From the IMG/VR virus record IMGVR_UViG_3300045988_172722, positions 1 to 51,360 of that record: DNA of 51,360 nucleotides; one strand, 5' to 3'. This DNA comes from a virus. The number at the start of each line of letters is the position of its first letter. Within the stretch, counting starts at the first letter, position 1. Made by a program: the position numbers and the translations under genes. The notes beneath the pieces were generated by a model, which was given only the letters and a program-made list of their open reading frames with translations, searched no databases and was not told the DNA's origin. Shown piece by piece: positions 26 through 51,288 of the stretch.

Positions 26-57
26 GCGCTCTTTTCAGGCATTCTCGCAAAGTGGTA

Positions 58-358
58 GAAACAATAGGAAACAATAGGAAACAATGATTGTTTATCACGT
101 AACTAATTGATTTTCAATAAGATAGACCACTTATAAACAATGTAAACAATAAAAATAAAAATCAAATAAAGAGATGTAATATAGTTGAATAATAGATTAT
201 ATAAATTATATAGACTCAAATCTATAAATCCGAATATGGTTTATAGAGGCTTTGTTTCTATTGTTTCTATTGTTTACTCATTGACTATCAATCAGTTATG
301 ATTCTCGCTATTGTTTCTCATTGAAAATCAATTAGTTATGAGACTATTCTCGCAAAGA
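58..358. promoter_or_regulatory. Iteron-like region A: direct GAAACAATAG repeats, an AT-rich core, the inverted copies, and ATTGA-N3-TCAAT palindromes
   Basis: Three 10-bp direct repeats lie at 58-67, 68-77 and 78-87 and run into the palindrome AAACAAT-G-ATTGTTT (79-93). AAACAAT occurs at 135-141 and 144-150. Reverse copies TATTGTTTC x3 lie at 250-277 and one more at 308-317. Palindromes lie at 106-118, 280-292 and 320-332. There is a ~40-bp tandem duplication (279-318 versus 319-358). The block 246-279 is nearly identical to 29328-29361. Confidence 0.8.
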
Positions 359-404
359 AAAAATTTTTATAGAAAAAAATAGCTGCGAGAATTTTTATAC
401 TCAT

Positions 405-453: not shown

Positions 454-1212
454 ATGATAAACATAGAAGGCATACAGGTAGATGTTGTAGGGAACCCAGA
501 TACCCTATCAACTGAATGGGCCATTTTTACAGTAGAATTTGAGTATGACAGCCGAATAATGGTATGCCATACTTTTAATTGGACTGTACGAAAAGAAATT
601 GTTAGGCTTATACATAAAATACTTAGTCCAAAAGTAGAAGGCTTAGATTTGAGGCAGTCTTTTGTAAATAGCCAATATATTACAATAGAAGTAAAAAGTC
701 ATTTTACAGGCAACTGTTCGGCTGTACTGGAAAATAAATATCAGCTGATAAAAGATAATGTTACATATTATCCATACGGCTATAATTTCTTATTGCTAGT
801 TAATAGTCGTATAGAAAAACCATACGCTTTTGCTATATATAATAAGTTGATAGATGATATAAGTACAGATGCTCTAAAACGAGTTGGACTTATAAAAACA
901 AAAGAACCAAAAGGACGAATGCCAAAACCTGTATATCAATACAGCAAAGAAACAGGGCTTTTTGTTGCTGAATATAATTCAGTAAAAGAAGCAGCTATTG
1001 AGCTAAATATAAGTGCAACAAGCATAAATATGTGTTGTAATGGCCATATAAAATCAGCAGCTGGATTTTTATGGTCTTATGAAAAAGTAGGTATAATCGA
1101 AGATATTCCATCAGACAAACGTAAAAAGTTAAAAGAAATGCCTAATATAACAGAAATAATTGACTCTATTAAAAAGAAGCAACAGAATTTTATAGCAGCT
1201 AATAAAAAATAA
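454..1212 (+). CDS. DNA-binding protein with a homing-endonuclease-type C-terminal HTH (NUMOD1/IENR1-like); N-terminal domain unknown
   Basis: The C-terminal KPVYQYSKETGLFVAEYNSVKEAAIELNISATSINMCCNGHIKSAAGFLWSYEK resembles the DNA-binding module at the C-termini of GIY-YIG/HNH homing endonucleases. I see no nuclease motif in the first ~190 aa. The ORF-track start at 421 is a TTG inside the -7 box, so ATG 454 is preferred. Confidence 0.55.
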   Translation: MINIEGIQVDVVGNPDTLSTEWAIFTVEFEYDSRIMVCHTFNWTVRKEIVRLIHKILSPKVEGLDLRQSFVNSQYITIEVKSHFTGNCSAVLENKYQLIKDNVTYYPYGYNFLLLVNSRIEKPYAFAIYNKLIDDISTDALKRVGLIKTKEPKGRMPKPVYQYSKETGLFVAEYNSVKEAAIELNISATSINMCCNGHIKSAAGFLWSYEKVGIIEDIPSDKRKKLKEMPNITEIIDSIKKKQQNFIAANKK

Positions 1213-1214
1213 CA

Positions 1215-2003
1215 ATGAAACAGAATAAAATAGAAGAGCAGCTTAGCTCTATACTCCCAACAAGGACCCAGGCTCCAAGCCTTAATCGTCCTTCTGCGTC
1301 AACAGCTCAATCTATAGCCAAAGAGGCTGCTGACATTAAAGCTAAAGCGGACGCAAAAGAGCTCGCGCGCATAAAATATATAGAGAAATGCCGCCTACAA
1401 CGCGAAAAAGCAAAGCTCGAAGAAAAACAGAGCCTTGCAGAAGAACTTGGATTGACGCAGGATGAAGCAGAGAACTTGTCAACCACAGTTCAAATTCAAA
1501 AAGTGGCAGAACAAAAAAAACGAGTTGAGGCGGTTGAAGCAATTGAGGCTCAAACTGTAACTCCACTTGACCCAGTTGAGTTTGCTCAAAGAGGTGGTAC
1601 ATATTCAGGCAAAACAACTCAGCTTCTTCAGCTCCAAGGAGCATCAAGACCTGAGATTGTTAAACTGCTCACTAGCCTTAATATAAACTTAAGTGTTCAG
1701 CTTACAAAGCAAGATACAGCTAATTTATTGGCGTGTTTATTGACTTGTAATGAAAGCCAGCTTCAGGCTCTTATGAATAACAAGAAAATACCAGTAGTAA
1801 TAAAAACTGTTATTAAACGCCTCATAGAGGATATGAAACTCGGCAATATAGAAACGGTTGAGAAGCTTTGGGACCGCATATTCGGTAAAGGAGCAATGCA
1901 GCTTAATCTTCCAGAGCAAGCACAACTACAAACAGGCATTCTTCCAAATGTGCCTATTTCCCGTGAAGCATACGTGATAATTCGCGAAAGTCTAATGAAG
2001 TAA
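1215..2003 (+). CDS. Putative terminase small subunit
   Basis: It lies just upstream of terL, separated only by an HNH ORF. The coiled-coil N-terminus and the C-terminal EKLWDRIFGKG resemble the DRxxGK end of small-terminase families. Confidence 0.5.
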   Translation: MKQNKIEEQLSSILPTRTQAPSLNRPSASTAQSIAKEAADIKAKADAKELARIKYIEKCRLQREKAKLEEKQSLAEELGLTQDEAENLSTTVQIQKVAEQKKRVEAVEAIEAQTVTPLDPVEFAQRGGTYSGKTTQLLQLQGASRPEIVKLLTSLNINLSVQLTKQDTANLLACLLTCNESQLQALMNNKKIPVVIKTVIKRLIEDMKLGNIETVEKLWDRIFGKGAMQLNLPEQAQLQTGILPNVPISREAYVIIRESLMK

Positions 2004-2011
2004 AATTAAAG

Positions 2012-2563
2012 GTGATAAAAAACATGGATAAACGAATAGAAAGAATGTTAGAAAGAGAAAAGGCTCTTTCGCATGAATACTTAACAAAAGTACTTGAGTA
2101 TGAGCCTGAATCTGGAGTATTTATCTGGAAAATAAGAGCTTCTCAAGCAGTAAAGCCTGGAGATATAGCAGGTTCTGTAAACAAAAATGGATATTTATTT
2201 ATAAAAGTAGGAAAATATATTTATAGAGCACATAGACTTGCATGGTTTTATTTTTATGGGCAATGGCCTCCTATTGAAAATTATCAAATAGACCACATAG
2301 ATGGTAATAGGCTTAATAATTCTATAAAAAACCTAAGATTAGCTTCAAATGCTAAAAACGCAAGAAATCATAAACTGTATAGTCATAATACCTCTGGAGT
2401 TTCTGGAGTACATTTTGCAGAAGCTAGTAATAAATGGAAAGCTACTATAAGATATAATGGCCGTAATATACATCTTGGATATTATGCTAGTTTTGAAGAC
2501 GCTGTAAATGCAAGAATAGTTGCAGAGAAAGAATTAGGATATACAACAGAAAAAGATATGTAA
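2012..2563 (+). CDS. HNH homing endonuclease with an AP2 DNA-binding domain
   Basis: HNH_3-like IDHIDGNRLNNSIKNLRL is followed by AP2-like SGVSGVHFAEASNKWKATIRYNGRNIHLGYYASFEDAVNAR. The start is GTG 2012, or alternatively ATG 2024. Confidence 0.85.
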   Translation: MIKNMDKRIERMLEREKALSHEYLTKVLEYEPESGVFIWKIRASQAVKPGDIAGSVNKNGYLFIKVGKYIYRAHRLAWFYFYGQWPPIENYQIDHIDGNRLNNSIKNLRLASNAKNARNHKLYSHNTSGVSGVHFAEASNKWKATIRYNGRNIHLGYYASFEDAVNARIVAEKELGYTTEKDM

Positions 2564-2581
2564 CCAAGCCATAATTAAGCT

Positions 2582-4165
2582 ATGCAAATAAAACAAAAAT
2601 CATTAAAAGAAATGCAACAGACGGCTCTAAATACTTCTAATGGTGGAACCGTAAATCCTAAAGAGCTCTTAAAGGTAGAACTGCTATCATCTTTTGAAAA
2701 ATATACGCGGGTAATGTTCAAAGCCCAGTACCATCGTTCTTTTATAGTTGCAGAGCACCATAAGAGAATGTTTGAGGCATTACAGAATGTAGTAGATGGC
2801 AAATGTAAGAGACTTATAATCAATATAGCACCCCGATATGGTAAAACCGAGCTTGTTATCAAATCATTTATAAGTTGGTGCTTTGCATTAAATCCAAAGT
2901 GCCGATTTTTGCATCTGTCTTATTCAGATATACTTGTGTATGATAATTCGGAGACAATACGAAATATCATGCAAGAAGAGCTTTATAAGGCACTTTTTCC
3001 AAGTTCGGCTCTTGCATCTGAGAAAGGGTCAGCTAAGAGATGGAAAACTAAAGCAGGTGGTGAGCTTTATGCAGTATCAACACAAGGTCAGGTAACAGGT
3101 TTTGGTGCAGGAAATGTTGATATTGACCCAGATATTGATAAAATGGATGGGGGCAATGATATTTTTGTGTTCGATGACCACACCAATGAAGTACTTGGTA
3201 TGTTAAGAGCTACAACTAATATCTTCCAAGGTGCAATTGTAATCGATGACCCGATTAAGCCTGAAGACGCCGAGTCCGATATCGTTCGTGAACGTATCAA
3301 CATGCGTTTTGAGAACACAATCCGTAACCGTACCAACTCGCGTAACACGCCAATTATAATTATCATGCAAAGGCTACATGAACATGATTTGTGTGGCTAT
3401 TTGCAAGATGTAGAACCTGATGAATGGACTGTACTTTCAATGCCTGTTATACAAACAAACCCTGAGACAGGTGAAGAACATGCCTTATGGCCGATGAAGC
3501 ACACACTTGAAGAACTCTATAAGATGCGCGAGATAAATCCGTTAGTGTTTGATACACAGTATATGCAAGACCCAACTCCAAAAGAGGGTCTTATGTATGA
3601 AGGGTTTAGAACTTATAGGCCAGAAGAGCTACCAACAGGCAATAAAGCACTTCAAAAATGGAATTATACTGATACTGCTGACACAGGAGCTGACTTTTTG
3701 TGTTCTATTTGCTTCATAAACACGCCAGAATACGCTTATGTGACAGATGTAATGTTTACAGATGCTCCTATGGAGGTAACGGAGCCAAAGCAAGCTGAAT
3801 TATTAGCACGAAACCAAACAGTTGACTGCTTAATAGAGTCAAATAATGGCGGCCGAGGCTACTCAAGAAATGTCAAAAAGATACTTCGAGTTGATTTACG
3901 TAACTTTAAGTGTGCTATCAGAACATTTACGCAAACAGAGAATAAGAAAACCCGCATTTATACAGCGTCAGCTCAAGTCCAAAATGATATTCTATTCCCA
4001 GAAGGCTGGGATAAGAAGTGGCCTAAGTTCTATAATGCACTTATATCATATCGCAAAGATAATAAGAAGAGAAACCAGCATGATGATGCTCCAGATTGCT
4101 TGACTGGCGTATGGGAGATGCATAGTAGGAAAGGTGGAAAACGAAAAATACACCAAAGAAACTAA
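2582..4165 (+). CDS. terL: Terminase large subunit
   Basis: Motifs present are Walker A-like INIAPRYGKTE, Walker B-like AIVIDDPIKPED, and the C-terminal nuclease motif HDDAPDCL. The 527-aa size and the position are typical. Confidence 0.85.
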   Translation: MQIKQKSLKEMQQTALNTSNGGTVNPKELLKVELLSSFEKYTRVMFKAQYHRSFIVAEHHKRMFEALQNVVDGKCKRLIINIAPRYGKTELVIKSFISWCFALNPKCRFLHLSYSDILVYDNSETIRNIMQEELYKALFPSSALASEKGSAKRWKTKAGGELYAVSTQGQVTGFGAGNVDIDPDIDKMDGGNDIFVFDDHTNEVLGMLRATTNIFQGAIVIDDPIKPEDAESDIVRERINMRFENTIRNRTNSRNTPIIIIMQRLHEHDLCGYLQDVEPDEWTVLSMPVIQTNPETGEEHALWPMKHTLEELYKMREINPLVFDTQYMQDPTPKEGLMYEGFRTYRPEELPTGNKALQKWNYTDTADTGADFLCSICFINTPEYAYVTDVMFTDAPMEVTEPKQAELLARNQTVDCLIESNNGGRGYSRNVKKILRVDLRNFKCAIRTFTQTENKKTRIYTASAQVQNDILFPEGWDKKWPKFYNALISYRKDNKKRNQHDDAPDCLTGVWEMHSRKGGKRKIHQRN

Positions 4166-4174: not shown

Positions 4175-4261
4175 ATTCTCGCATTATTCTCGCAATCTAT
4201 ATTCTCTTAAAAGTTTAGTCCTTATTATTTCTAAATCTTAGAGAAAATTGATTGCGAGAAT
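4175..4261. promoter_or_regulatory. ATTCTCGC motif cluster: two direct copies plus one inverted copy
   Basis: ATTCTCGC lies at 4175-4182 and 4186-4193, and GCGAGAAT at 4254-4261. The cluster sits in the terL/next-gene intergenic region, upstream of the promoter at 4313-4331. Confidence 0.6.
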
Positions 4262-4312
4262 GAGACAATAAAAATACTTAGTTAAAAATTGTCAAAAAGT
4301 ATACAGCTTTCA

Positions 4313-4331
4313 ATTTTTATTAGTATATTCG
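4313..4331 (+). promoter_or_regulatory. Promoter-like element TTATTAGTATATTCGCA (-7 box variant TATATTCG, 4324-4331)
   Basis: It is a near-copy of the element at 405-423. It sits in a 265-bp intergenic gap, ~100 nt upstream of ATG 4431. Confidence 0.5.
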
Positions 4332-11998: not shown

Positions 11999-12630
11999 AA
12001 GAAAATTCTGTACAAATAAGATATAAAGATAATCCTGTACTACTTGATAAAGTATTACAGGATATGCAGACAACTCTTTTAGTTAAGCTGCCGTGGCTTA
12101 ATTATGCTTTTGGTAGAGCTTATAAACTTGTAGAAAATAGGCCAGATGGCGCTAAGTTTATATATCCCGCAGCTTATAATGGCAATGGAGAATATGTATC
12201 TCTTTTACCTAATGATAATTTTGGTAACTTTTCATGGTTTGATATTTATGACCCGCAAAAAATCACTCAGGTTGTACAATCTTTACCTCAATATACTTTT
12301 AGCGGTGCTATCGTTTTTTGGTATGACCTTAGCAGCATTTACGAAGATGAAATGGTACTTCATACAGAAGAGGTTAAAGATGAAATAATACGGGTACTGA
12401 CAACGCCAGGAGTTATTACAACGACTGGTAAGCTTACTATCGATAATATATATGAACGTTTTGAAAATATATATAAAGGGTACTCTATAGAAAAGATTTA
12501 CAATAATTATGATTATTCTGGACAAAACATACAAGATATTGATAAGCAATTCTTTATGTACCCTTATGCAGGAATTAGAATTGAGTTCACTTTAACAACT
12601 AGAGAATTATGTCAACGGTATATTTTATAA
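11995..12630 (+). CDS. Hypothetical tail-module protein (possible tail tube)
   Basis: The ORF is 211 aa and overlaps the previous stop (ATGA). The assignment is by position only. Confidence 0.4.
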   Translation: MKENSVQIRYKDNPVLLDKVLQDMQTTLLVKLPWLNYAFGRAYKLVENRPDGAKFIYPAAYNGNGEYVSLLPNDNFGNFSWFDIYDPQKITQVVQSLPQYTFSGAIVFWYDLSSIYEDEMVLHTEEVKDEIIRVLTTPGVITTTGKLTIDNIYERFENIYKGYSIEKIYNNYDYSGQNIQDIDKQFFMYPYAGIRIEFTLTTRELCQRYIL

Positions 12631-12881
12631 CATTGCTTTCGGCTTTAATATATATAGCCTTAGCAGCAGCATTTGTTATATTGCTGATTGGAAAATTGGG
12701 CATAAGAGATAGTATAATTGCCAAAGCTCCTAAGCTGGTTTCTCAATTATTCGATTGTGATTTTTGCTTAAGTTTTTGGATGTCGCTTATTCTCGCTGTC
12801 ATTCTCGCTATTTTCTTTAATGAGTTTAGTATTTTATTTATTCCGATAATATCAACTCCTATAACGCGAATTTTGATATGA
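12609..12881 (+). CDS. Small membrane protein
   Basis: The 90-aa product has at least two hydrophobic helices (LLSALIYIALAAAFVILLIG and FWMSLILAVILAIFF). It contains two in-frame ATTCTCGC copies. Confidence 0.5.
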   Translation: MSTVYFITLLSALIYIALAAAFVILLIGKLGIRDSIIAKAPKLVSQLFDCDFCLSFWMSLILAVILAIFFNEFSILFIPIISTPITRILI

Positions 12882-28677: not shown

Positions 28678-28712
28678 CCATTCTCGCATATAAGAAATTA
28701 TTACGAGAATGG
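28678..28712. promoter_or_regulatory. Inverted repeat CCATTCTCG-N17-CGAGAATGG
   Basis: There are perfect 9-bp arms at 28678-28686 and 28704-28712, directly after the endolysin stop. They contain the ATTCTCG core motif. Confidence 0.6.
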
Positions 28713-28756
28713 TTTTTATATAATAGATTAAGTAACAATAATAAAACTCAAAGACT

Positions 28757-29149
28757 ATGCGAGAATATGCGAGAATAATTATAATAGCAATTGTAGCTTT
28801 ATGTCTTAGTGCATGCAAAAGTATAAAGTATGTACCAGTTGAAACTGTTAAAGTAGATACTACATATATTTCGCAAACCAAAATTGATAGCATATATCAT
28901 AGAGACTCTATATATGTAGAGCACAAAGGTGATACAGTATATTTGAGCAAATATAAGTATCTGTATAAATATATAGAAAAACATGACACTCTTTGGCGTG
29001 AAAAAATCGATACAATTCAAGTTACATATCCTGTAGAAGCTCAACTTACTAAATGGCAAAAGATAAAAATTAATATGGGCGAATACCTAATAGCTGCCAT
29101 AGTTTTAATAACTATATGGCTGTGCGTAAAATACTTCATAAAGCGGTAA
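28757..29149 (+). CDS. Unimolecular spanin candidate (N-terminal lipoprotein signal plus C-terminal TM helix)
   Basis: The lipobox is in IIIAIVALCLSAC|K (L-S-A-C). The C-terminal hydrophobic helix is YLIAAIVLITIWLCVKYF. It is the last gene of the lysis cassette. Confidence 0.65.
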   Translation: MREYARIIIIAIVALCLSACKSIKYVPVETVKVDTTYISQTKIDSIYHRDSIYVEHKGDTVYLSKYKYLYKYIEKHDTLWREKIDTIQVTYPVEAQLTKWQKIKINMGEYLIAAIVLITIWLCVKYFIKR

Positions 29150-29154
29150 ACGAT

Positions 29155-29361
29155 GTAAACAATAGAAACAATTTATTGTTTATGCTCTAAAGTATTCAAA
29201 ATCAATCACTTAGATATGCTGTAAACAATGGAAACAATAGAAATATAAATCTTTTATATTATGCTAATCTAGATATTGATTAACTATAGAGTTAATCGGA
29301 ATTTAAAAAATTAGGTTAGAAATATACGAGGCTTTGTTTCTATTGTTTCCATTGTTTACAG
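29155..29361. promoter_or_regulatory. Iteron-like region B, paralogous to region A
   Basis: GTAAACAATAGAAACAAT runs into the palindrome AAACAAT-TT-ATTGTTT (29166-29181). GTAAACAATGGAAACAATAGAAAT lies at 29221-29244. After an AT-rich core comes GAGGCTTTGTTTCTATTGTTTCCATTGTTTAC (29328-29359), nearly identical to 247-278. Confidence 0.8.
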
Positions 29362-29458
29362 CCTTATTTATATAGAATTGCAGCGCCAAAAATGCAAAAT
29401 TGCTGTTTTAATATTTTTAACAAGAAAATTCTCAAAAAATATAGGAAAAATTTTTTTC

Positions 29459-29500
29459 TTTCGAGAATAGTTTGTATATTTGCATATCGAAAATAATGAA
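29459..29500 (+). promoter_or_regulatory. Early-type promoter cassette, copy 1 of 3 (-7 box TATATTTG at 29475-29482)
   Basis: CGAGAATAGTTTGTATATTTGCATATCGAAAATAATGAAG is nearly identical to the reverse complements of 48889-48934 and 50710-50756. It lies 70 nt upstream of ATG 29552. Confidence 0.7.
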
Positions 29501-29551: not shown

Positions 29552-29965
29552 ATGGAACAGTTTAACATTAACAGCGTAATTGAGCATTATAAGCTGAACA
29601 CAGAAGATTTAGCAAAGGTGCTATTTCCTACTGTTAAATATCCAAAACAAGCCTTTGACCGAGTATTAAAAGGCGAAACGGATTTGGATATTAAACAGAT
29701 AGAAACATTAGCCTCTCATATAGGCGTGTTAGTAACTGACCTGTTTTTAGCAGGTATTTGGAAAGCTTCATCAGAAGACGGTTGCCTTACAATGCTGAAA
29801 GGCGATTATAAAGTCAAGCTGAATTATAAAGGCGTGTTCGTGTCTATATATAAAAATAACAAATTGATTGAGCAGAAAATTTCCAACGTACCAGATATGA
29901 CAATGCAAGAGTTTATGAACTATATTGATAACTTTATTAAAAATTACGAAAATGGAAGCAATTAA
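29552..29965 (+). CDS. Putative HTH DNA-binding regulator (first gene of the early plus-strand unit)
   Basis: The N-terminal LNTEDLAKVLFPTVKYPKQAFDRVLKGETDLDIKQIETLASHIGVLVTDLF has an XRE/Cro-like helix-turn-helix layout. Confidence 0.5.
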   Translation: MEQFNINSVIEHYKLNTEDLAKVLFPTVKYPKQAFDRVLKGETDLDIKQIETLASHIGVLVTDLFLAGIWKASSEDGCLTMLKGDYKVKLNYKGVFVSIYKNNKLIEQKISNVPDMTMQEFMNYIDNFIKNYENGSN

Positions 29966-30374
29966 AATTTCCGTAGAGGTTAGCGTAAACCTGTCAGAAA
30001 ATACGCAGAACTTCATCAAGTCATTGTTTGGTAATGTGGCTACTTCTGTTGCTGCTCCAGCTCAGAAACCCGCTCCTGTAGCACCTGCTAAACCGGCTCA
30101 GCCAGCGTCCGCTCCGGCCCCAAAGCCTCAAGCTCCAGCTGCAGCATCTGCTCAAACAAAACCTGCTGCTACTCCTGCTCCTGGAGCACCTGCTGCTCAG
30201 GCTGCTTCTTCTGCCTCTAAGAGCATAGAAGATGTGCGCGCAATGCTTGCAAAGAAGGTGAATGAGCACCGCGATGTAATCAAGCAGAAACTCAATGAAC
30301 TTGGCGCTCCGAGTGTAACAAAGCTTGACCCGACCAAGTATGACGAAATGTTTAACTTCTTAGAGTCACTGTAA
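29952..30374 (+). CDS. Hypothetical protein with a long Ala/Pro-rich linker
   Basis: The start is ATG 29952 (MEAIKISVEV). It contains APAQKPAPVAPAKPAQPASAPAPKPQAPAAASAQTKPAATPAPGAPAAQA followed by a small helical C-terminal domain. Confidence 0.6.
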   Translation: MEAIKISVEVSVNLSENTQNFIKSLFGNVATSVAAPAQKPAPVAPAKPAQPASAPAPKPQAPAAASAQTKPAATPAPGAPAAQAASSASKSIEDVRAMLAKKVNEHRDVIKQKLNELGAPSVTKLDPTKYDEMFNFLESL

Positions 30375-30533
30375 TAGCAAATCAAAAGAAGCTGCAACAA
30401 GCAGCAATCAAGTTCCGTAAACAAAATCCTACGTTGCATGCAACATACTCAGTTTTACTTTCAGCTATGGCTAGATTTATTACAAAGTCTGGAGCCCCTG
30501 AAGTAACAGTAGGATATAAAAATAGAGAGTATT

Positions 30534-31751
30534 ATGCGTATGCAAACAACTAGCACTAAGTTACAGAAACATAGCCAGAGGAGTCATGCACTCCTCTCGG
30601 CTTCTGGAGCTGGAAGATGGCTTAATTGTACTCCATCTGCAAAGCTCGAAGATGAATATGGAGAAAAGAAAAGCTCCGTATATGCGCAAGAAGGCACGTT
30701 GGCTCATGAACTTTCAGAGCTTTATATTAGGCGTGATACTTTATTTGATATTAGTGAGCAAGACTTTGACCAGTGCCTTGAAGAGATAATGGCAAATGAG
30801 CTGTTTAATGAGGAAATGCTTGATGTAGTTCCAACTTATACAGATTATTGTGCAGCCCAATTAGCAGAAGCTAAGACAGCTAATCCTTTGGCCGTAATGG
30901 AAATTGAGCAGAAACTCGATTTGACAGACTTTATACCAGAGAGCTTTGGAACGGCTGACTGTGTTATTATCAATGACAACCTCATGGAAGTTATTGATTT
31001 GAAATACGGAAAAGGAGTTCCAGTATATGCTGAATGGAATAAACAACTTATGCTTTATGGCCTTGGAGCATTACAGAAATATGATACTATGTATGATATA
31101 TCTGAGGTACGATTGACAATTGTACAGCCGCGTATCAACAATATATCTTCATGGCAAATATCTGTAGAAGAGCTTCGTAAATGGGCTGAAGAGGAACTTA
31201 AGCCAAAAGCACAACTTGCATTTAATGGTGAAGGTGAGCTTAATGCTGGAGATTGGTGCAGATTTTGTGCTGTTCGCAATCAATGTAGAAAGTTATATGA
31301 GCAACAGCTTGAAATAGCTCAGCATGAGTTTGCAGAACCAGCACTTCTTACAGATGATGAGATTGCTGATATTGTTCGCCGTACTCCTAAGCTTATAGAG
31401 TGGGCTAATTCTATTGCAGAATATGCACAGAAAAAAGCTATAGAAGAAAATAAGCAATGGCCAGGTCTTAAGCTTGTTGAAGGCATAAGTAGACGCAAAT
31501 GGATTGATGAAGACCAAGCCTCAAATGCAATCTTTGCTCGTTGCCCTGAGCTATCAGAAGATGAGATTTTCAGCATGAAGCTAAAGCCAATTACTTCTAT
31601 TGAGAAGATAGTAGGCAAAAAACGCTTTGAAGAAATTCTATCTGATGTGGTTGTAAAACCTCAAGGCAAACCTACTCTCGTATCGCTTGAAGACAAGAGA
31701 CCAGCAATGGGTTATAATCAAGCACAACTAGACTTCGCAGAAGAAGCGTAA
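30534..31751 (+). CDS. PD-(D/E)XK nuclease of the DUF2800 / Cas4-like family
   Basis: The N-terminus is HALLSASGAGRWLNCTPS. The nuclease core is TADCVIINDNLMEVIDLKYGKG. The C-terminal Cys cluster is WCRFCAVRNQC. Confidence 0.8.
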   Translation: MRMQTTSTKLQKHSQRSHALLSASGAGRWLNCTPSAKLEDEYGEKKSSVYAQEGTLAHELSELYIRRDTLFDISEQDFDQCLEEIMANELFNEEMLDVVPTYTDYCAAQLAEAKTANPLAVMEIEQKLDLTDFIPESFGTADCVIINDNLMEVIDLKYGKGVPVYAEWNKQLMLYGLGALQKYDTMYDISEVRLTIVQPRINNISSWQISVEELRKWAEEELKPKAQLAFNGEGELNAGDWCRFCAVRNQCRKLYEQQLEIAQHEFAEPALLTDDEIADIVRRTPKLIEWANSIAEYAQKKAIEENKQWPGLKLVEGISRRKWIDEDQASNAIFARCPELSEDEIFSMKLKPITSIEKIVGKKRFEEILSDVVVKPQGKPTLVSLEDKRPAMGYNQAQLDFAEEA

Positions 31752-31784
31752 CAACTCAAGTATAACAATTAAAATTAAGTAAAA

Positions 31785-32333
31785 ATGGAAAATTCAACAA
31801 AAGTTGTAACTGGCAAAGTAAGATTTTGCTACGTGAACGTGTTCGAGCCCACGGCTATGAACGAGGGTGATACCCCTAAGTACAATATCTGCATTCTTAT
31901 CCCGAAGGATGATGCAAAGACCCTCGACAAGATTAACAAAGCTATAGAGGCAGCTAAGCAGGCAGGTAAAGCCAAGCTTGCAGACAAGAATGGCAAAATA
32001 CCCTCAAACCTCAAATTGCCTCTGCGTGATGGCGATGATGAGCGTGGTGATGACCCCGCATTTGAAGGCATGTATTTTATCAACGCTAATAGCCAGCGCA
32101 AGCCAAGCATCGTGGACAAAGAGCTTAATCCTATTATGGAAAAAGAAGAGTTTTATAGTGGTTGCTATGGTCGTGCATCAATTAACTTCTATGCCTTTAA
32201 TGTATCATCAAAAGGTATTGCAGCTGGACTGAATAATCTTCAGAAACTCGAAGATGGCGAGATGTTGGCCGGTGGCTCTACCGCTGAAGAGGACTTTGGT
32301 GGTGAGAACGAATGGGATGATGAGCTGATGTAA
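31785..32333 (+). CDS. Phage ssDNA-binding protein (DUF2815 family)
   Basis: It starts VVTGKVRFCYVNVFEP and has an acidic C-terminal tail (EEDFGGENEWDDELM). It follows the DUF2800 nuclease, as in the conserved polA-type replication module. Confidence 0.7.
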   Translation: MENSTKVVTGKVRFCYVNVFEPTAMNEGDTPKYNICILIPKDDAKTLDKINKAIEAAKQAGKAKLADKNGKIPSNLKLPLRDGDDERGDDPAFEGMYFINANSQRKPSIVDKELNPIMEKEEFYSGCYGRASINFYAFNVSSKGIAAGLNNLQKLEDGEMLAGGSTAEEDFGGENEWDDELM

Positions 32334-32361
32334 TTTCCTTTCTGCATCAAAATTTCCCTAA

Positions 32362-32442
32362 AGTATAGTAGTTTAATGGTAAAACCATAGAGCGCCATTG
32401 ATTTGTGTGCCTATTATGCGGGTTCGAGTCCCGCCTATGCTC
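32362..32442 (+). tRNA. tRNA-like gene with a non-canonical, over-long anticodon arm (anticodon not assignable)
   Basis: The 7-bp acceptor stem AGTATAG/CTATGCT has one G-U pair. The D arm is GTTT-AATGGTA-AAAC. The T arm GCGGG-TTCGAGT-CCCGC is perfect. The anticodon region folds as ATAG-(A)-GCGC / GTGC-CTAT with an 11-nt loop CATTGATTTGT instead of a 5-bp stem and 7-nt loop. Total length is 81 nt without CCA. Confidence 0.55.
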
Positions 32443-32471
32443 CTAATTATATAATACTAAATTAAGAAATA

Positions 32472-34445
32472 ATGGTGAAAAATCTTTTTATAGACGTCGA
32501 AACATTCTCCTCAGTAGATATTAAAGAATCTGGCGCATACAAATATATAGAGTCGCCAGACTTTGAGATACTGATTATAGGATATGCATTAGATGATGAG
32601 CCAGTTAACATTGTTGATTTAGCTCAAGGCGAGGAAATGCCTGAGGAGTTTGAAGAAGCGTTACTTGACCCGAAGTGTATAAAAGTTGCTCATAACGCAG
32701 TATTTGAGCGGCTTAGTTTTAAGCGAATAGGTTATAATGTTCCAGCAGAGCAGTGGTATTGTACTTCAGTAAAAGCTGCGTATTGTGGCTTACCACTTTC
32801 ATTGGATGGAGTATCAAAAGCTCTTAATCTTACGGATAAGAAGCTTGATACTGGTAAAGCACTTATTAAGTACTTTTCATGCCCATGTAAAGCAACTCGA
32901 GTTAATGGAATGCGTACACGCAATTATCCAAAACATGCCCCTGAAAAGTGGGAAATGTATAAAGAGTATAATAAATATGATGTCTTGGCTGAGCGTGAGA
33001 TATTTCATAGATTAGAGTCTTATATCATTCCAAAGATTGAGCGAGAAATGTACGTGCTTGACCAGAATATCAATGATAGAGGTATTTTGGTAGATATGGA
33101 GTTAGCAGAGTCTGCTATCACAGTAGATAATACTTATACTTCTATATTAACTCAACATGCTCAGCAGTTAACAGGCCTTGAAAATCCAAATTCGCCTGTA
33201 CAAATTAGGCAATGGATAGAAAAGAAAACAGGTAATGCCATATTGTCACTTTCAAAAGAAACAATGCCTGATTTGCTTAAAGAGTTTGCGGACTATCCAG
33301 ACGTAATTGAGTTGCTCAATATACGCAAAAAACTATCAAAAACTTCAATTAAGAAGTATTATGCTATGCTCAATTGCGCTATGAAAGACCACAGAGTTAG
33401 AGGTACATTCCAATTCTATGGTGCAAATAGAACTGGTAGATGGGCAGGTAGATTATTACAGTTACAGAACTTATCAAAAAACCATATATCGCATATTGAA
33501 GTACCGCGTGAGTTAATCAGAGCCCGTGATTGGGAAACAGTTGAGATGATGTATGATGATGTCGCAGATATTCTTTCACAACTTGTAAGAACAGCGCTTA
33601 TACCTCCGCAGGGTATGAAATACGCCGTAGCAGACTTTTCGGCCATTGAGGCAAGAGTAATATCTTGGCTTGCAGATGAAAAATGGCGATTAGATGTATT
33701 CCACGGTGATGGCAAGATTTATGAAGCAACTGGCGAAAAGATGTTTGGAGTTCCAAAGTCTGAAATTAAAAAAGGCTCAGTACTTCGCGACAAATCGAAA
33801 ATATCTGAATTGGCGCTTGGCTATGAAGGAGGTCTTGGAGCCTTAAAGCGAATGGGAGGCGATAAAATGGGCCTTTCAGATACAGAAATGATGTCACTAG
33901 TGCGTAAATGGCGTATGGCTAATCCATCTATAGTAGATATGTGGAAAGAAATTGATGAAGCTTCTAAAGAAGCTGTACGTTACCATAGAGCTGTTAAATG
34001 CACAAGCAAAAATATCATATTTGATTGCGATGGTGAATTTATGACAATTGAATTGCCAGTAGGTAGAAAGCTATTTTACTACAAACCAGAATTCAAAGAT
34101 AAGTATATAGGACGTTCTACTATGCCTATTCGTAGTCTTTGCTACAAAGGGATTGACCAGACAACCAAACAATGGATAAGCATAGATACCTATGGTGGTA
34201 AGCTGACCGAGAATATAGTTCAAGCAGTATCAAGAGATTTATTAGGCGATGCTATGCTTAGAATGGAAAAAGCCGGATATGGAATCGTTGGTTCAATTCA
34301 TGACGAAGTTATAACGGAAGTTCCGGAAGAGAATGCTCAATTGTGGTATGATAATCTGGTAAAAATCATGTCAACACCTCCTTTGTGGGCGCAGGATTTA
34401 CCCCTTAACGCAGATGGAGGAGTTATGGATTTTTACCAAAAATGA
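32472..34445 (+). CDS. Family A DNA polymerase with a 3'-5' exonuclease domain
   Basis: Exonuclease motifs are FIDVETFS (Exo I) and HNAVFERL (Exo II). Polymerase motifs are A VADFSAIEARV, B RDKSKISELALGYEGG and C GSIHDEVI. Confidence 0.9.
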   Translation: MVKNLFIDVETFSSVDIKESGAYKYIESPDFEILIIGYALDDEPVNIVDLAQGEEMPEEFEEALLDPKCIKVAHNAVFERLSFKRIGYNVPAEQWYCTSVKAAYCGLPLSLDGVSKALNLTDKKLDTGKALIKYFSCPCKATRVNGMRTRNYPKHAPEKWEMYKEYNKYDVLAEREIFHRLESYIIPKIEREMYVLDQNINDRGILVDMELAESAITVDNTYTSILTQHAQQLTGLENPNSPVQIRQWIEKKTGNAILSLSKETMPDLLKEFADYPDVIELLNIRKKLSKTSIKKYYAMLNCAMKDHRVRGTFQFYGANRTGRWAGRLLQLQNLSKNHISHIEVPRELIRARDWETVEMMYDDVADILSQLVRTALIPPQGMKYAVADFSAIEARVISWLADEKWRLDVFHGDGKIYEATGEKMFGVPKSEIKKGSVLRDKSKISELALGYEGGLGALKRMGGDKMGLSDTEMMSLVRKWRMANPSIVDMWKEIDEASKEAVRYHRAVKCTSKNIIFDCDGEFMTIELPVGRKLFYYKPEFKDKYIGRSTMPIRSLCYKGIDQTTKQWISIDTYGGKLTENIVQAVSRDLLGDAMLRMEKAGYGIVGSIHDEVITEVPEENAQLWYDNLVKIMSTPPLWAQDLPLNADGGVMDFYQK

Positions 34446-34454
34446 TTATTATTT

Positions 34455-36857
34455 ATGCAAGTAGGTAAATTAGAATATGATGAAAATCTTAGCATAGCTA
34501 TTGGAATGAGCGTTTCAAGTAAGATATGGAAAAATACCAAAATTACTTGGAATGCTCTAGTACAAAAGCTATCTACTCCAGTGGTGACTGCTGAAACATA
34601 TAAGCAGTTCATGAATGCCACTAAGGAGGAGCAAAGCAAGATAAAAGATGTCGGCGGTTTTGTGGGAGGATTTCTCACAAATGGCAGACGTGATAAAACT
34701 AATGTTTTATATCGCCAACTCCTTACTTTGGATGTGGACTTTTCACATGAAAATTTTTGGTGGGATTTCACAGTGTTATTTGGATGCGCAGCAGTTATAC
34801 ACTCAACTCATAAGTCGAGTACCACAAAACCAAGGCATAGATTGATAATTCCACTAGATAGAGAAGTATCACAAGAGGAATATCAAGCTATAGCAAGAAA
34901 AGTCGCCGGGGACCTAAACATTGATTTGTTTGACCAATCGACTTTTGATGTGAATAGACTTATGTTCTGGCCGTCTGTATCTTCAGATGCAGAGTACTAT
35001 TTTGAATTTCAAGATGGACCATTTCTTGAGGCTGATTATATACTAAGCTTGTATAATGATTGGCATGATACAAGTGAATGGCCAACTGCTTCAAATAGTA
35101 CTGATACTATATTACAAGCAATTAAAAAGCAAGAAGACCCTGAAAACAAAAAAGGTATTATTGGTTTATTTTGTCGTACATATTCAATTCAAGAAGCTAT
35201 TGAAACTTTTTTATCAGATATTTATGAAAAAGCAGGAGAAGATAGATACACGTATATTAATGGCTCAACAGCTGCTGGACTCATTATATACGAAGATAAA
35301 TTTGCTTATTCGCATCATGGAACGGACCCAGCAGGAGGTAGGTTGTGCAACGCCTTTGACCTTGTGCGTATTCATAAGTTTGGCCATTTAGATACAGGCA
35401 AAGAGAAAGAAGACAAGGACAAAAAGAGCTTCAAGGCAATGGAAGAATTTGCATCTAAAGACCCATTGACTAAGAAGCACATTGCAGATGAGAAATTTGC
35501 AGAAGCTAAATTCGAATTTGCTGAAGAAGCTATTCAAGAAGCAGAAGAGCAAACAGATGATGATTGGATGTCTCAGCTTGTTGCAAATACTAAAGGAGAC
35601 TTCGAAAATTCAGCCAATAACTTAAATATAATAATACAAAATGACCAATTCATTAAAAATGCGTTTAAGCGCAATACGTTCGACAATAAAGTCTATATTA
35701 CGAGGTCTATGCCGTGGCGTAGCATATCTGCTCCTGAGCCCGTTCGTGATGTCGATTATTCTGGTGTTCGCAATTATATTGAGTGTGTATATGGTATTGT
35801 TGCAAGCCAGAAAGTTGATGATGCGATGGCACTCGAAATTGAAAAGAAAAAGTTTCATCCAATAGTAGAATATTTAAAAGAGCTTAGCTGGGATGGTATT
35901 AAGAGAATAGATACTTTGCTAATAGATTATTTTGGAGCAGATGATAACTTATACACTAGAGCTGCCATCAGAAAGTCTCTTTGCGCGGCCGTTGCCAGAG
36001 TGCTTGTGCCAGGTATGAAATTCGACACGGCACTTATATTGGTTGGTCCACAAGAAACATACAAAAGTACATTTATCAAAAAGCTCGGTAAAGAATGGTT
36101 TTCAGACACATTTACGACAGTACAAGGCAAGGAGTCATTTGAACAATTGCAAGGAGCGTGGATAATTGAAATGGCAGAGCTTTCAGGATTGAAAAAAGCA
36201 GAAGTTGAAACAATTAAGCATTTCATATCAAAACGTGAGGACCAGTTTAGACCAGCATACGGTAGAACAGTAGAAACTTATAAGCGTCAATGCGTGTTTT
36301 TCGGTACTACTAATAAAGATGATTTTTTGCGCGACCCTACAGGAAATAGACGCTTTTTGCCTATAGATGTTAGGCCAGAGTTTGTAAAGAAGTCGGTAGC
36401 TGATGACCTTATAGAATATGAAGTAGACCAAATATGGGCTGAGGCATATCAGTTATATATAGCAGGAGAACCTCTATATATGACAGGTGAAGAAGATAAG
36501 ATTGCTAAGATTGAGCAACATAAACACTCAGAGTCAGACGAGCGCAAAGGTATTATCGAAGAGTTTCTTAATAGAAAATATCCAGACAACTGGAGCGAAA
36601 TGGACTTTTATGACAGAAGAAGATGGCTTGAAGACCCATTATCGCAGAACGGAACAATTCAAAAGGACTTTGTATGTGTTGCAGAGATATGGTGCGAATG
36701 CCTCGGTAAAGATAAAACAGATATGGATAGATACAAAACACGTGAGATAAATGAAATTCTTAAGTCACTAAGTGATTGGGAATATATAAACTCAACAAAG
36801 AATTTCTCCATATACGGTAAACAAAAGTATTATAAACGTAAAGATAGCTTATTATGA
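34455..36857 (+). CDS. Primase-helicase (BT4734/VirE-N-like primase-polymerase domain plus VirE/D5-type P-loop NTPase)
   Basis: The N-terminal region reads LTLDVDFSHENF...STHKSSTTKPRHRLIIPL. Walker A is LILVGPQETYKSTF and Walker B-like is AWIIEMAELSG. The ORF is 800 aa. Confidence 0.8.
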   Translation: MQVGKLEYDENLSIAIGMSVSSKIWKNTKITWNALVQKLSTPVVTAETYKQFMNATKEEQSKIKDVGGFVGGFLTNGRRDKTNVLYRQLLTLDVDFSHENFWWDFTVLFGCAAVIHSTHKSSTTKPRHRLIIPLDREVSQEEYQAIARKVAGDLNIDLFDQSTFDVNRLMFWPSVSSDAEYYFEFQDGPFLEADYILSLYNDWHDTSEWPTASNSTDTILQAIKKQEDPENKKGIIGLFCRTYSIQEAIETFLSDIYEKAGEDRYTYINGSTAAGLIIYEDKFAYSHHGTDPAGGRLCNAFDLVRIHKFGHLDTGKEKEDKDKKSFKAMEEFASKDPLTKKHIADEKFAEAKFEFAEEAIQEAEEQTDDDWMSQLVANTKGDFENSANNLNIIIQNDQFIKNAFKRNTFDNKVYITRSMPWRSISAPEPVRDVDYSGVRNYIECVYGIVASQKVDDAMALEIEKKKFHPIVEYLKELSWDGIKRIDTLLIDYFGADDNLYTRAAIRKSLCAAVARVLVPGMKFDTALILVGPQETYKSTFIKKLGKEWFSDTFTTVQGKESFEQLQGAWIIEMAELSGLKKAEVETIKHFISKREDQFRPAYGRTVETYKRQCVFFGTTNKDDFLRDPTGNRRFLPIDVRPEFVKKSVADDLIEYEVDQIWAEAYQLYIAGEPLYMTGEEDKIAKIEQHKHSESDERKGIIEEFLNRKYPDNWSEMDFYDRRRWLEDPLSQNGTIQKDFVCVAEIWCECLGKDKTDMDRYKTREINEILKSLSDWEYINSTKNFSIYGKQKYYKRKDSLL

Positions 36858-36960
36858 TAGTAAATTTTTTCAAAGTTATATCTGGGGACCATAGAAATAA
36901 GACGCTACTTGTCTCTAGAAATATAGATACGCGTGAGTATAATGTTTTGCTAATACAGGT

Positions 36961-37260
36961 ATGAAGCAGATAGACAGCGAGAAACTAGTAGAACGGAGAT
37001 TAGTGGAGCTCGTCAAAATAAATAATGGCATGTGTATAAAGCTATTATGTGACCAGCTGATAGGTTTACCTGATAGGCTCTGTTTATTTCCTAACCATAA
37101 AATGGCATTTGTGGAAACTAAGACCACAGGTCAAAAGCCAAGACGCATACAAGCCTATATGCACAAAAAGCTTAGAGCTCTTGGCTTCAGAGTCGAAGTA
37201 ATTGACTCAGTTGAAGACGTGATAAATTTCGTAGAAGATATAATGCTAAATAAACAATGA
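36961..37260 (+). CDS. VRR-NUC domain nuclease
   Basis: The PD-(D/E)XK signature is GLPDRLCLFPNHKMAFVETKTTGQKPRRIQ. The 99-aa size is typical. Confidence 0.75.
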   Translation: MKQIDSEKLVERRLVELVKINNGMCIKLLCDQLIGLPDRLCLFPNHKMAFVETKTTGQKPRRIQAYMHKKLRALGFRVEVIDSVEDVINFVEDIMLNKQ

Positions 37261-37697
37261 GGGGCGAAAAGATACTATTAACTTGCGAAAAATGTGGAAA
37301 GCAGTTTATAAGGTATAAATGCTTAATAAAGCCAGGCATTACTCATTTCTTTTGCAGCAGAGCTTGTGCTAAAGAGCATTTAAGTACAAAAATGACTAAG
37401 ATGAATGAGGACTTAAATCCTACTAGAATGGATAACTTTGAAACAAGGTTAGCTGTTAGAGAAGGTCATCTTAGGAATAATACTGGAAAAGAGCATAGCT
37501 ATCCTAAGATATTTGGAACTCATGCACATAGAATACTAGCAGAAGAAATAATAGGAAGACCACTTAAGAAAGGTGAAGTAGTACATCATAAAGATGGTAA
37601 TCCTAGAAATAATTCTATTGATAACTTAGAAGTTTTAAGTTCACAAGCTGAGCACGCAAAACTTCATTGTAAAGATGAAAGGTTTTCAAAATGCTAA
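37257..37697 (+). CDS. HNH endonuclease with an N-terminal Cys-rich (zinc-finger-like) segment
   Basis: The motifs are CEKCGKQF...FCSRAC and VVHHKDGNPRNNSIDNLEVLSSQAEHAKLH. It is inserted between the VRR-NUC and SNF2 genes. Confidence 0.85.
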   Translation: MRGEKILLTCEKCGKQFIRYKCLIKPGITHFFCSRACAKEHLSTKMTKMNEDLNPTRMDNFETRLAVREGHLRNNTGKEHSYPKIFGTHAHRILAEEIIGRPLKKGEVVHHKDGNPRNNSIDNLEVLSSQAEHAKLHCKDERFSKC

Positions 37698-39121: not shown

Positions 39122-39122
39122 T

Positions 39123-39341
39123 ATGTTTACAAAGCAAGAATGTAAAAAGCTTATAGCTAAAAAGCTTGAAGACAAGCAGATAATTTCTAGAAGAGAGTTA
39201 ATAAATACTGGTAGAAAGTATGTAGGCAGTAATTCAAAGTATTTTGCTTCTGTAGATGCCGTGGTCGATGCATCATTAAAAAAATTAGTGTCTGTAGGTG
39301 TTATAGCAAAAATAGAAAAAGGACAATATAAAAAAGCATAG
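39123..39341 (+). CDS. Small hypothetical protein
   Basis: ATG 39123 lies 1 nt after the helicase stop. The product is 72 aa. The longer ORF-track version (39018) overlaps the helicase and is unlikely. Confidence 0.5.
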   Translation: MFTKQECKKLIAKKLEDKQIISRRELINTGRKYVGSNSKYFASVDAVVDASLKKLVSVGVIAKIEKGQYKKA

Positions 39342-39343
39342 TA

Positions 39344-39685
39344 ATGGGAAGAAATGGTAAAGCAATTCCGGTTTTTTCTAGAATGATTAAGCTGGTGAAT
39401 GATAACATAGGAAATGTTATCAGCTCAGAAGAAATGCTATTAGGCAATGAGCCTGGTAGAAACTCAGTGACTGCTTACGTATACAAGTTTGTAAAGCTTG
39501 GATATATAGAAATGGCTACTGAAGGTAAAAAAGGTATACTTAGTAAAGAAACAACTTATAGAATTAAAAAAGCATTTCCAGACCATTATAATTCTGTAAT
39601 GCTGATGGATGAGCTAAGAGTATATAACGGGCTTATTCCTGAGAAACGAGATTTTGCAACCGCGCTAAATAGAGTAAAGGCATAA
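39344..39685 (+). CDS. Hypothetical protein
   Basis: This is a 113-aa ORF, tightly packed, and the last gene before a 240-bp intergenic region. Confidence 0.55.
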   Translation: MGRNGKAIPVFSRMIKLVNDNIGNVISSEEMLLGNEPGRNSVTAYVYKFVKLGYIEMATEGKKGILSKETTYRIKKAFPDHYNSVMLMDELRVYNGLIPEKRDFATALNRVKA

Positions 39686-39889
39686 AAGCAATAAAAAAAG
39701 TCAAGTAAGTGGAAGCTATTACAAAGATATGGTTTTCAACCAATAAAGCTAATAGCTGCTTTTAGATGTTCTTTTATTCAAGACTGTATAATAAAATATA
39801 TCAGTAGATATAAGAATGTATAATGCATGGTCAAGTTAAGAAGTGTTAAATATGTAATTTTTATGAGGAAAATTTTCTATTCTCGGAAA

Positions 39890-39903
39890 AAATTAGTATA
39901 TTC
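39890..39903 (+). promoter_or_regulatory. Promoter-like element AATTAGTATATTCACA (-7 variant TATATTCA)
   Basis: It shares the ATTAGTATATT core with the elements at 411-423 and 4319-4331. An ATTCTCGG variant precedes it at 39879-39886. It lies 26 nt upstream of ATG 39929. Confidence 0.4.
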
Positions 39904-39928
39904 ACATATCTAAAATAAGAATAGAAAA

Positions 39929-40460: not shown

Positions 40461-40472
40461 ACAGTTTTAACT

Positions 40473-42612: not shown

Positions 42613-42632
42613 ATAGGATTGATTTACACATT

Positions 42633-42717
42633 ATTCTCGCGCGTAATACCGTATGCAAAGTATGAAACAAAAGAAATATATTCAGAAAAACGCATAGGCT
42701 CTAGAGCGCGCGAGAAT
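42633..42717. promoter_or_regulatory. Inverted repeat ATTCTCGCGCG ... CGCGCGAGAAT
   Basis: Perfect 11-bp arms lie at 42633-42643 and 42707-42717, flanking 63 bp. It sits in the 121-bp gap after dut and before the GTG-start ORF at 42734. Confidence 0.65.
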
Positions 42718-42733
42718 ATATAAATCTTAAGCA

Positions 42734-51240: not shown

Positions 51241-51288
51241 CCAAATATCCAGAAAAATTTTGAGAGTTCAGTTTCTATTCTCGCAAAG

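Follow-up and report, generated by a model that had tools for sequence, protein, structure and literature searches.

By analogy, the stoperator system of cluster A mycobacteriophages is the closest known concept to the set of ATTCTCGC sites described here. Stoperators are 13-mers that are bound by a monomeric HTH immunity repressor (L5 gp71-type) in temperate phages, and their orientation follows transcription (PMC9283540). More than a dozen near-identical copies are present per genome, at promoters and in short intergenic spaces, and one phage-encoded DNA-binding protein acts on both transcription initiation and elongation (PMC9283540). Like stoperators, ATTCTCGC is asymmetric and forms a set of 15 near-identical sites, 11 of which lie in the non-coding 9.3% of the window (the whole stretch of DNA analysed, a complete IMG/VR virus record of 51,360 bp). 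Unlike stoperators, the sites do not obey an orientation rule, with 10 forward and 5 reverse copies under one direction of transcription; the word is shorter, at 8 (about 10) nt, and its inverted pairs build RNA hairpins, whereas stoperators are not hairpin stems. The candidate reader also differs, being an OmpR-type protein in a phage in which no lysogeny genes were seen.

Sites of the OmpR/PhoB family have a half-site periodicity that matches the spacing of tandem ATTCTCGC copies, which lie about one helical turn (10–12 bp) apart. The direct repeat of ~10–11 bp that characterizes these operators is found among the ATTCTCGC copies, besides many single sites and inverted pairs; a cluster A site adjoins the -33/-35 position of a promoter, and a candidate cognate winged-helix protein is encoded together with the sites. 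Unlike OmpR/PhoB sites, ATTCTCGC is also found far from promoters and within hairpin-coding DNA, its inverted copies are 77–79 bp apart and do not make up a dimer-sized palindrome, and the setting is a virulent-looking phage. For HP1043/HsrA, an atypical orphan regulator of Helicobacter pylori, head-to-head binding has been proposed (PMC8345958). The phage regulator resembles HP1043/HsrA in its degenerate receiver domain and, judged from its sequence, is a candidate for phosphorylation-independent action.

The RNase III hairpins of phage T7 are long, imperfect hairpins between cistrons; after processing, the upstream message ends in a stable 3' hairpin. Several ATTCTCGC sites are likewise part of long, imperfect, intercistronic hairpins in long operons that share sequence within the genome, and those of clusters B and E fold into 76–87-nt structures, with double-stranded RNA of at least about two helical turns. 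The T7 sites differ from ATTCTCGC in that they are not found as unpaired tandems or arrays, and their shared sequence lies around an internal loop and not at the stem foot. The DNA uptake sequences of Neisseria and Haemophilus, REP/REPIN elements and Correia units belong to bacterial chromosomes, where they are linked to transformation or to mobilization by a RAYT/transposase. ATTCTCGC is similar in being an exact, over-represented word with inverted pairs behind genes that double as terminator or RNA-stability hairpin, but neither a transformation function nor a RAYT/transposase is evident in the phage. A literature search returned no mention of ATTCTCGC in the sense of a boundary signal, or of a Bacteroides-phage response regulator.

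The window represents a Bacteroides-type phage, with ~72% identity over terminase and portal to BF486P2, BF494P1 and BF503P1, which are phages of Bacteroides fragilis isolated from sewage. Its genes are arranged in four blocks (Table 1), of which the replication and nucleotide-metabolism block encodes an exonuclease, a gp2.5-like SSB, DNA polymerase, primase-helicase, an SNF2 helicase, a methyltransferase, dUTPase and a thymidylate-synthase-like enzyme. No RNA polymerase gene was seen in the window, and no repressor or integrase family was found among ~40 proteins scanned, a set that lay outside the structural genes. Host-type -7 boxes (TAnnTTTG) with extended similarity split the promoters into two groups, the early-promoter cassette in three copies and two promoters without it. 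Clusters A and B lie directly upstream of the two promoters that lack the early cassette, and no recognizable promoter adjoins clusters C, D or E. A generic promoter/terminator scan gave chance-level counts, and its loop limit of 3–8 nt misses the ATTCTCGC hairpins. An Rfam scan of the window returned nothing at the hairpins; its sole match was a tRNA-like call at 32362–32442, which scored 43.5 bits yet was not reported by ARAGORN.

Table 1. Positions of the ATTCTCGC clusters, associated hairpins, promoters and gene blocks in the window
Feature	Position	Strand	Remarks
Packaging block	454-4165		
Structural and lysis block	4431-29149		
T7-like replication and nucleotide-metabolism block	29552-46145		
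Leftward block	46202-50589		Small genes without assigned function
Early-promoter cassette, three near-identical copies	29459-29500; 48889-48934; 50710-50756	+; -; -	…TTCGAAAATAGTTTGTATATTTGCATAT…; boxes 29475 (+), 48915 (-), 50737 (-)
Two non-early promoters	416 and 4324		TTATTAGTATATT[T/C]GCA
Cluster A, exact copies	51277, 41, 301, 346; 385	+; -	
First forward copy of A	51277..51284	+	ATTCTCGCAAAG; abuts 25-bp tandem array crossing the record junction
Second forward copy of A	41..48	+	ATTCTCGCAAAG; other side of the array; unpaired
Third forward copy of A	301..308	+	ATTCTCGCTATTG; adjoins AAACAAT-type iterons
Cluster A hairpin	346..398	+	Arms 346-353 (+) and 385-392 (-), then TTTTTAT
Cluster B, exact copies	4175, 4186; 4254	+; -	
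Cluster B element, 87 nt	4175..4261	+	Begins 10 nt past the terminase large-subunit stop codon
-7 box of the structural-gene promoter	4324..4331	+	TATATTCG (TATATTTG in most relatives); 62 bp downstream of the B right arm
Cluster C, exact copies	12789, 12801	+	
Cluster C tandem pair	12789..12808	+	12 bp apart; in 90-aa membrane-protein gene 12609-12881 (ILAVILA)
Cluster D copies	28680; 28759, 28769	+; -	7/8 reverse copy at 28703
D hairpin 1, intrinsic terminator	28678..28717	+	Begins 12 nt past the amidase stop codon
D tandem pair	28759..28776	-	GCGAGAAT-NN-GCGAGAAT; 10 bp apart; 79 and 89 bp from 28680
Cluster E, exact copies	42633; 42710	+; -	
Cluster E hairpin, 85 nt	42632..42718	+	Begins ~20 nt past the dUTPase stop codon; no U-run
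OmpR/PhoB-type regulator, 236 aa	45435..46145	+	Candidate reader; last gene of the rightward early/middle operon

The dinucleotide-preserving shuffles contained a mean of 1.27 copies of ATTCTCGC (maximum 5), and 0 of 100 reached the 15 copies observed. Under a third-order Markov model ATTCTCGC was the top 8-mer of the window (expected 1.04, z 13.6). An earlier inspection of the letters alone (the sequence-only reading) had estimated about one copy by chance and proposed an exact k-mer count against such backgrounds, which confirmed the over-representation; all 15 exact copies that it had listed were recovered with the same coordinates and strands. One-mismatch variants were not enriched (47 matches including the 15 exact ones, versus 38 expected), and the signal is therefore the exact word. 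Flanking positions add little, with Y on the 5' side and A, G or T, never C, on the 3' side (95 copies, six genomes). The non-coding placement had a binomial P of 4e-9. Four of the 15 copies are inside genes, namely the cluster C pair and the cluster D tandem; the sequence-only reading had counted 13 intergenic or edge copies, of which 11 are indeed non-coding and two (28759 and 28769) fall in the first codons of ORF 28757–29149.

Other details of that reading needed revision. Among the 7-mer variants it had noted, the one at 28703–28710 is real and forms the right arm of a terminator hairpin, and those at 39879 and 47212 found no support. The variant at 29461 was rejected as a ATTCTCGC site, being part of the three-copy early-promoter cassette (TTCGAGAATAGTTTG versus TTCGAAAATAGTTTG). 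The suggestion that copies precede TAnnTTTG boxes holds at cluster A (21–23 bp) and cluster B (61–64 bp) and fails elsewhere. What had been taken for a terminal repeat is a 22-nt overlap within a 25-bp tandem array, the window being the whole virus record, so the copy at 51277 and those at 41–392 belong to one region.

We observed ATTCTCGC in two settings. About half of the copies form the outer helix of + strand RNA hairpins, and the rest are unpaired, in both orientations. Counted from the stop codon of the gene before them (terminase, amidase or dUTPase), hairpins with a ATTCTCGC foot begin after 10–21 nt. Inverted pairs are the usual arrangement, in a region that is transcribed one way. 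The hairpin stems, the presence of one canonical intrinsic terminator and a 77–79 bp spacing between inverted copies had all been absent from the sequence-only reading.

Conservation was examined in five full relatives, which share 77–85% identity over the alignable 75–84% of the genome. Each contained 14–18 copies of ATTCTCGC versus 0–2 of the reversed word, in the same five clusters and with the same internal spacings, and across 80 loci around the regulator gene 349 copies were found in 1.35 Mb, versus 2 of the reversed control word. The positional conservation that the sequence-only reading had put forward as a check was thus seen in all relatives examined. In every genome examined (six full), the tandem copies of cluster B were spaced by 11 bp, those of D by 10 bp and those of C by 12 bp. 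Forward and reverse copies were separated by 79 bp in B and by 77 bp in E; in D, with its tandem of reverse copies, the distances were 79 and 89 bp, and the 79-bp partners there were not predicted to pair with each other in RNA. Either B, D and E derive from one ~87-bp ancestral unit, or the spacing is selected at the DNA level. ATTCTCGC is a genuine signal at cassette boundaries, sequence-specific and under selection. An invertible switch was considered and rejected; inversion of the spacer between inverted copies was not seen for B or E, and only a 15-nt loop in cluster D was flipped.

Cluster A occupies the control region. The copy at 51277 is in the same place in 5/5 full relatives, and region A as a whole carries 3–6 forward copies, mostly ATTCTCGCAAA, flanking repeat units of 25 or 51 bp; in relative G003 there are five forward copies and zero reverse, and in G004 and G005 the tandem spacing in this cluster is 12 bp. 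The hairpin of cluster A ends 23 nt (393–415) upstream of the -7 box TATATTTG (416–423) of the packaging-operon promoter. Its fold is weak (z -1.8) and is not conserved as a hairpin: before the 416-type promoter, relatives have a hairpin, a single reverse copy (G002), or one or two forward copies. The word is therefore kept at this place and the pairing is not.

Other features of the control region were noted alongside. A stretch of ~700 bp (50590–51276) is G+C-rich, hairpin-dense and without a credible ORF, and runs into the first ATTCTCGC copy and the array; from a TATATTTG box at 50642 (+), transcription of a non-coding RNA could run rightward across this stretch. A second repeated word, in the form of GAAACAATAG-type iterons with 26–34-nt inverted blocks, is found at 56–85, 255–277, 308–318 and 29138–29367, marking two regions, each with a major promoter downstream of it. 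BF503P1 has two analogous iteron regions built from a different repeat (GAAAATAGTGAAAACAG).

Cluster B consists of two forward copies 11 bp apart (4175 and 4186) and a reverse copy (4254). In the window, 22-nt arms (4186–4207 and 4240–4261) close a hairpin of -29 kcal/mol (z -5.85), with no U-run after it. Across 32 distinct variants the element was a constant 87 nt and both copy 1 and the right arm were invariant, while the interior of 57 ± 1 nt belonged to one of six sequence families, no fewer than four of which are unrelated. Folded representatives of all six families gave long hairpins closed by motif arms (z -3.5 to -6.3), in which the left arm is copy 1 or copy 2 depending on the variant; alternation of U-A with U.G was seen among the variants. 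The distance from the right arm to the -7 box was 61–64 bp in nearly all distinct spacer sequences, which comprise three sequence families.

The hairpin of cluster E has an outer 10-bp helix (TATTCTCGCG/CGCGAGAATA) in which 10/11 outer pairs never varied among 47 distinct variants, whereas in the two main inner helices every one of the 9 pairs had changed on both sides. The consensus fold of these variants has 22 pairs, 10 of them with changes on both sides, and 99.6% of cells are paired. None of 500 shuffles (0/500) reached the observed covariation score, and slid controls collapsed; in the window the hairpin has a z of -5.3. One pair alternates between U-A and U.G, with 19 sequences each, which fits an RNA of the + strand. 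A degenerate copy (ATTT[T/A]CAC, 5–6 of 8 matches) lies 11 bp upstream of hairpin E (42621–42632); this arrangement mirrors the tandem of B and suggests that B and E may be paralogues.

In relatives, extra genes have been inserted ahead of hairpin B, on its terL side (examples are the small ORFs of G001–G003 and, in G005, an HNH-like ORF), and before or after hairpin E (G002 and G001), and at both boundaries the hairpin always stands behind the last gene. These boundaries are therefore hot spots for gene gain.

Cluster D opens with a hairpin that has the features of an intrinsic terminator (z -6.7), in the window CCATTCTCG-N17-CGAGAATGG followed by TTTTTAT (UUUUUAU in RNA), with an A-run upstream. 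Its arms are the forward copy at 28680 and the 7/8 reverse copy at 28703–28710, which is exact in relatives, where the structure is CCATTCTCGCA-N13-TGCGAGAATGG followed by TTTTTAT, again with an upstream A-run. The cluster A hairpin shows the features of a terminator weakly (z -1.8, UUUUUAU), and B and E, without a U-run, do not show them. The tandem pair of D overlaps the start and first codons of a lipoprotein (spanin-like) gene, in two reading frames, and is unpaired in the predicted RNA folds of three genomes. In a second copy of the module in G001 the tandem pair is kept, though non-coding (outside any long ORF).

Some further observations concern this locus. In G001 the module of terminator and tandem reverse pair is present twice, flanking the lipoprotein gene (L123:335–431; L125, near 50641–50727 of the record). 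The 15-nt loop of the amidase terminator (28689–28703) occurs in both orientations, ATATAAGAAATTATT versus AATAATTTCTTATGT (L011, L092, L123), a small hairpin-loop inversion between inverted motif copies. The product of 28757–29149 resembles a unimolecular spanin in having a lipoprotein signal (…LSAC) as well as a membrane helix at its C terminus; its gene follows a strong terminator, and no separate promoter for it is visible.

Cluster C is a coding pair with no inverted ATTCTCGC partner nearby. It encodes ILA twice, both times with the rare Leu codon CTC (7% of Leu codons), and among 58 distinct alleles the motif codons were changed in 5/232 cells versus ~22% for flanking codons.

The BF503P1 clade offers a comparison in which the word is missing: one ATTCTCGC copy in 50 kb is chance level. 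BF503P1 has hairpins at the B and E positions despite lacking the motif, and they share ~28 nt, TTTCTTTTATyCTGGAAGAGCTTTTA, a sequence that occurs only these two times in the genome; the stem sequence that they have in common is CTGGAAGAGCTTTT. The shared ~28 nt make up the left arm and the sequence upstream of it (hairpins at 4190–4300 and 42512–42600), and the right arms differ (G.U wobbles on the + strand). These hairpins exist without the regulator; the boundary hairpins and the sharing of left arms are therefore older than, and independent of, the ATTCTCGC system. In the clade of the window, ATTCTCGC seems to have been laid over pre-existing hairpins and then to have spread to further places. 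The top 8-mer of BF503P1, AACAGTAG, was tried as a counterpart motif and rejected, since it is scattered in coding DNA without a boundary signal.

The candidate reader of ATTCTCGC is the sole recognizable transcription factor of the phage. It combines a receiver domain with a winged helix (Response_reg 1e-7; Trans_reg_C 7e-15), its best solved relative is RegX3, and Ser stands in place of the phospho-acceptor Asp (Gly in one clade). All 41 of the 41 relatives with a completeness of at least 90% carry the gene, and the recognition-helix segment NKRSLDV.IC.LRN is nearly invariant among proteins whose overall identity falls to 54%. It was not found in the motif-less BF503P1 clade, where the neighbouring genes gave no match to any regulator family. 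A large protein search for distant homologues returned only members of the same phage family, at 61% identity or more, and GenBank phages contained no close homologue, the matches being below ~30% identity and mostly bacterial contamination. Two other candidate readers were rejected: a NUMOD1 protein (454–1212) is only 27–58% identical among genomes with an invariant motif, and both HNH endonuclease genes are missing from relatives.

At a confidence somewhat short of even, we propose that ATTCTCGC may be a double-stranded DNA operator half-site of a phosphorylation-independent OmpR/PhoB-type regulator, superimposed on older terminator or processing hairpins. The proposal draws on the observed enrichment, positional conservation, RNA structure with a frozen base, conserved unpaired copies, fixed spacings and co-occurrence with the regulator; from these we infer recognition at the DNA level, the identity of the reading protein and the direction of its effect. 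The regulator would be produced from the end of the early/middle operon and would occupy tandem pairs (10–12 bp, head-to-tail) and inverted pairs 77–79 bp apart. At the sites upstream of promoters 416 and 4324 it may tune transcription of the packaging and structural genes, and at cassette ends it could reinforce or gate the hairpins by serving as an insulator or roadblock. The older hairpins would close the cassettes, as a terminator after the lysis amidase and as long hairpins without a U-run after terL and dut. The idea of the sequence-only reading that a specific factor recognizes the word at transcription-unit boundaries thus receives partial and indirect support, from the invariant outer helix against covarying inner helices, the conserved unpaired copies and a word common to the relatives; that factor could be an activator, a repressor or a roadblock.

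Several observations argue for an operator. The outer pairs of E, and copy 1 and the right arm of B, are frozen beyond the needs of pairing. Unpaired copies are found both forward (the A arrays and C) and reverse (the D tandem and the single copy of G002), and such copies are hard to reconcile with a reader of single-stranded RNA, which would need two words, and easy for a reader of double-stranded DNA, for which they are one. The D tandem is kept in two frames and where it is non-coding, and the C pair resists synonymous change; inverted copies are an equal 79 bp apart in B and D although the partners in D are unpaired; clusters A and B precede the two promoters without the early cassette; and the regulator co-occurs with the motif, both being absent from the BF503P1 clade. 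Against an operator, this co-occurrence amounts essentially to two clades and hence one evolutionary event. Transcription-factor operators are usually degenerate, but one-mismatch variants of ATTCTCGC are not enriched. At four places the sites fall precisely on the foot of an RNA stem, which an operator leaves unexplained, and clusters C, D and E have no recognizable promoter nearby. The B and E hairpins of BF503P1 share CTGGAAGAGCTTTT in the absence of a regulator, so the sharing of stems has a cause that does not require one.

We consider it possible, if doubtful, that ATTCTCGC is read in RNA, as the sequence-specific foot of hairpins that end or process polycistronic transcripts. The hairpins might then serve as terminators, as 3'-end protection or as RNase III-type cut sites, with a host or phage RNA-binding factor as reader, and unpaired copies might be spare arms or decoys, for instance on a non-coding RNA from ~50650 across the G+C-rich stretch into the array. 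Such a role agrees with the covariation and U.G wobbles on the + strand in E, the U-A/U.G alternation in B, the long hairpin formed by every folded B spacer family (z -3.5 to -6.3), the start of the hairpins 10–21 nt past stop codons, the U-runs of the D1 and A hairpins, constant hairpin lengths of 85 and 87 nt, and the equivalent hairpins of BF503P1, with a shared stem of their own and no regulator gene. It is hard to square with unpaired copies in both orientations, which in RNA are two different words, and with the A array of G003, where five forward copies have no reverse partner. Regular RNA helices of 10 bp are seldom read base by base, complementarity in trans between array copies and right arms stops at 8–9 nt, and the ~40 proteins scanned include no RNA-binding family. 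Operator and hairpin foot may also be combined: one 8-mer would work at two levels, and occupancy of the DNA arms by the regulator would gate the RNA hairpin, a protein-switched terminator or insulator in a module of ~87 bp with inverted ends, together with neighbouring promoters. All of the evidence for recognition in DNA and for a role in RNA applies here too, and the combination would further accommodate the inverted spacing of 79, 79 and 77 bp at three places with unrelated interiors, the replacement of B spacers in sequence with their length held at 57 ± 1 nt, and the duplication in G001 of terminator and tandem pair as a module. We nevertheless regard this double role as unlikely, since it requires two unproven steps, the literature search found no precedent, and B, D and E could simply have inherited their equal spacing from a single ancestral element.

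Much less probable in our judgement is a selfish origin, in which B, D and E are MITE/REP-like palindromic copies, the word is their terminal inverted repeat with no dedicated reader, and homogenizing recombination has kept it uniform. The units resemble one another in size, have inverted ends and lie in intergenic DNA just behind stop codons, E has a degenerate extra copy 11 bp upstream as B has an exact one, gene insertions in relatives cluster at the cassette boundaries, the B and E hairpins of BF503P1 have ~28 nt in common, and the D1 loop is flipped between genomes, all of which would fit a mobile element. However, an 8-mer that is identical in more than 80 genomes between flanks of 75–85% identity requires purifying selection. 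No target-site duplication is visible at the flanks of B or E, no transposase or RAYT family was found among the ~40 proteins scanned, and the units show no presence/absence polymorphism, being located identically in every relative examined; nor would a mobile element account for the A arrays, the C pair or the tandem spacing. Very improbable as well is a target for a host factor or for a nuclease or modification enzyme (restriction, nicking or methylation), as which the exact, CpG-containing 8-mer would qualify in a phage that encodes a pyrimidine hydroxymethylase and a methyltransferase. The motif is enriched and not avoided, clustered and not dispersed; the HNH genes of the window are absent from relatives that keep the motif, the methyltransferase has no matches to DNA-methyltransferase families, and no enzyme is tied to the tandem geometry of 10–12 bp or the inverted one of 79 bp. 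The sequence-only reading had pictured such a target as kept out of genes, a notion for which no support was found; four copies lie within genes, and two of these look positively selected there.

The operator that we tentatively favour can be put to experiment, as the ATTCTCGC work has defined the word exactly, placed it at five conserved positions with a fixed geometry and named a candidate protein, which together make a testable regulon. If termination occurs at the hairpins, transcripts would have 3' ends at ...GCGAGAAU(U)n. The word and its 79-bp spacing also provide a simple marker for cassette boundaries, where new genes insert in relatives. The phage family is common in human-gut viromes, with more than 100 contigs in one collection. 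If the operator reading is true, an operator set would have been described for the first time for a response-regulator homologue carried by a phage, and ATTCTCGC would exemplify operator sites built into RNA hairpins; if the word works at both levels, it would represent a protein-gated boundary element in a very abundant family of gut phages.
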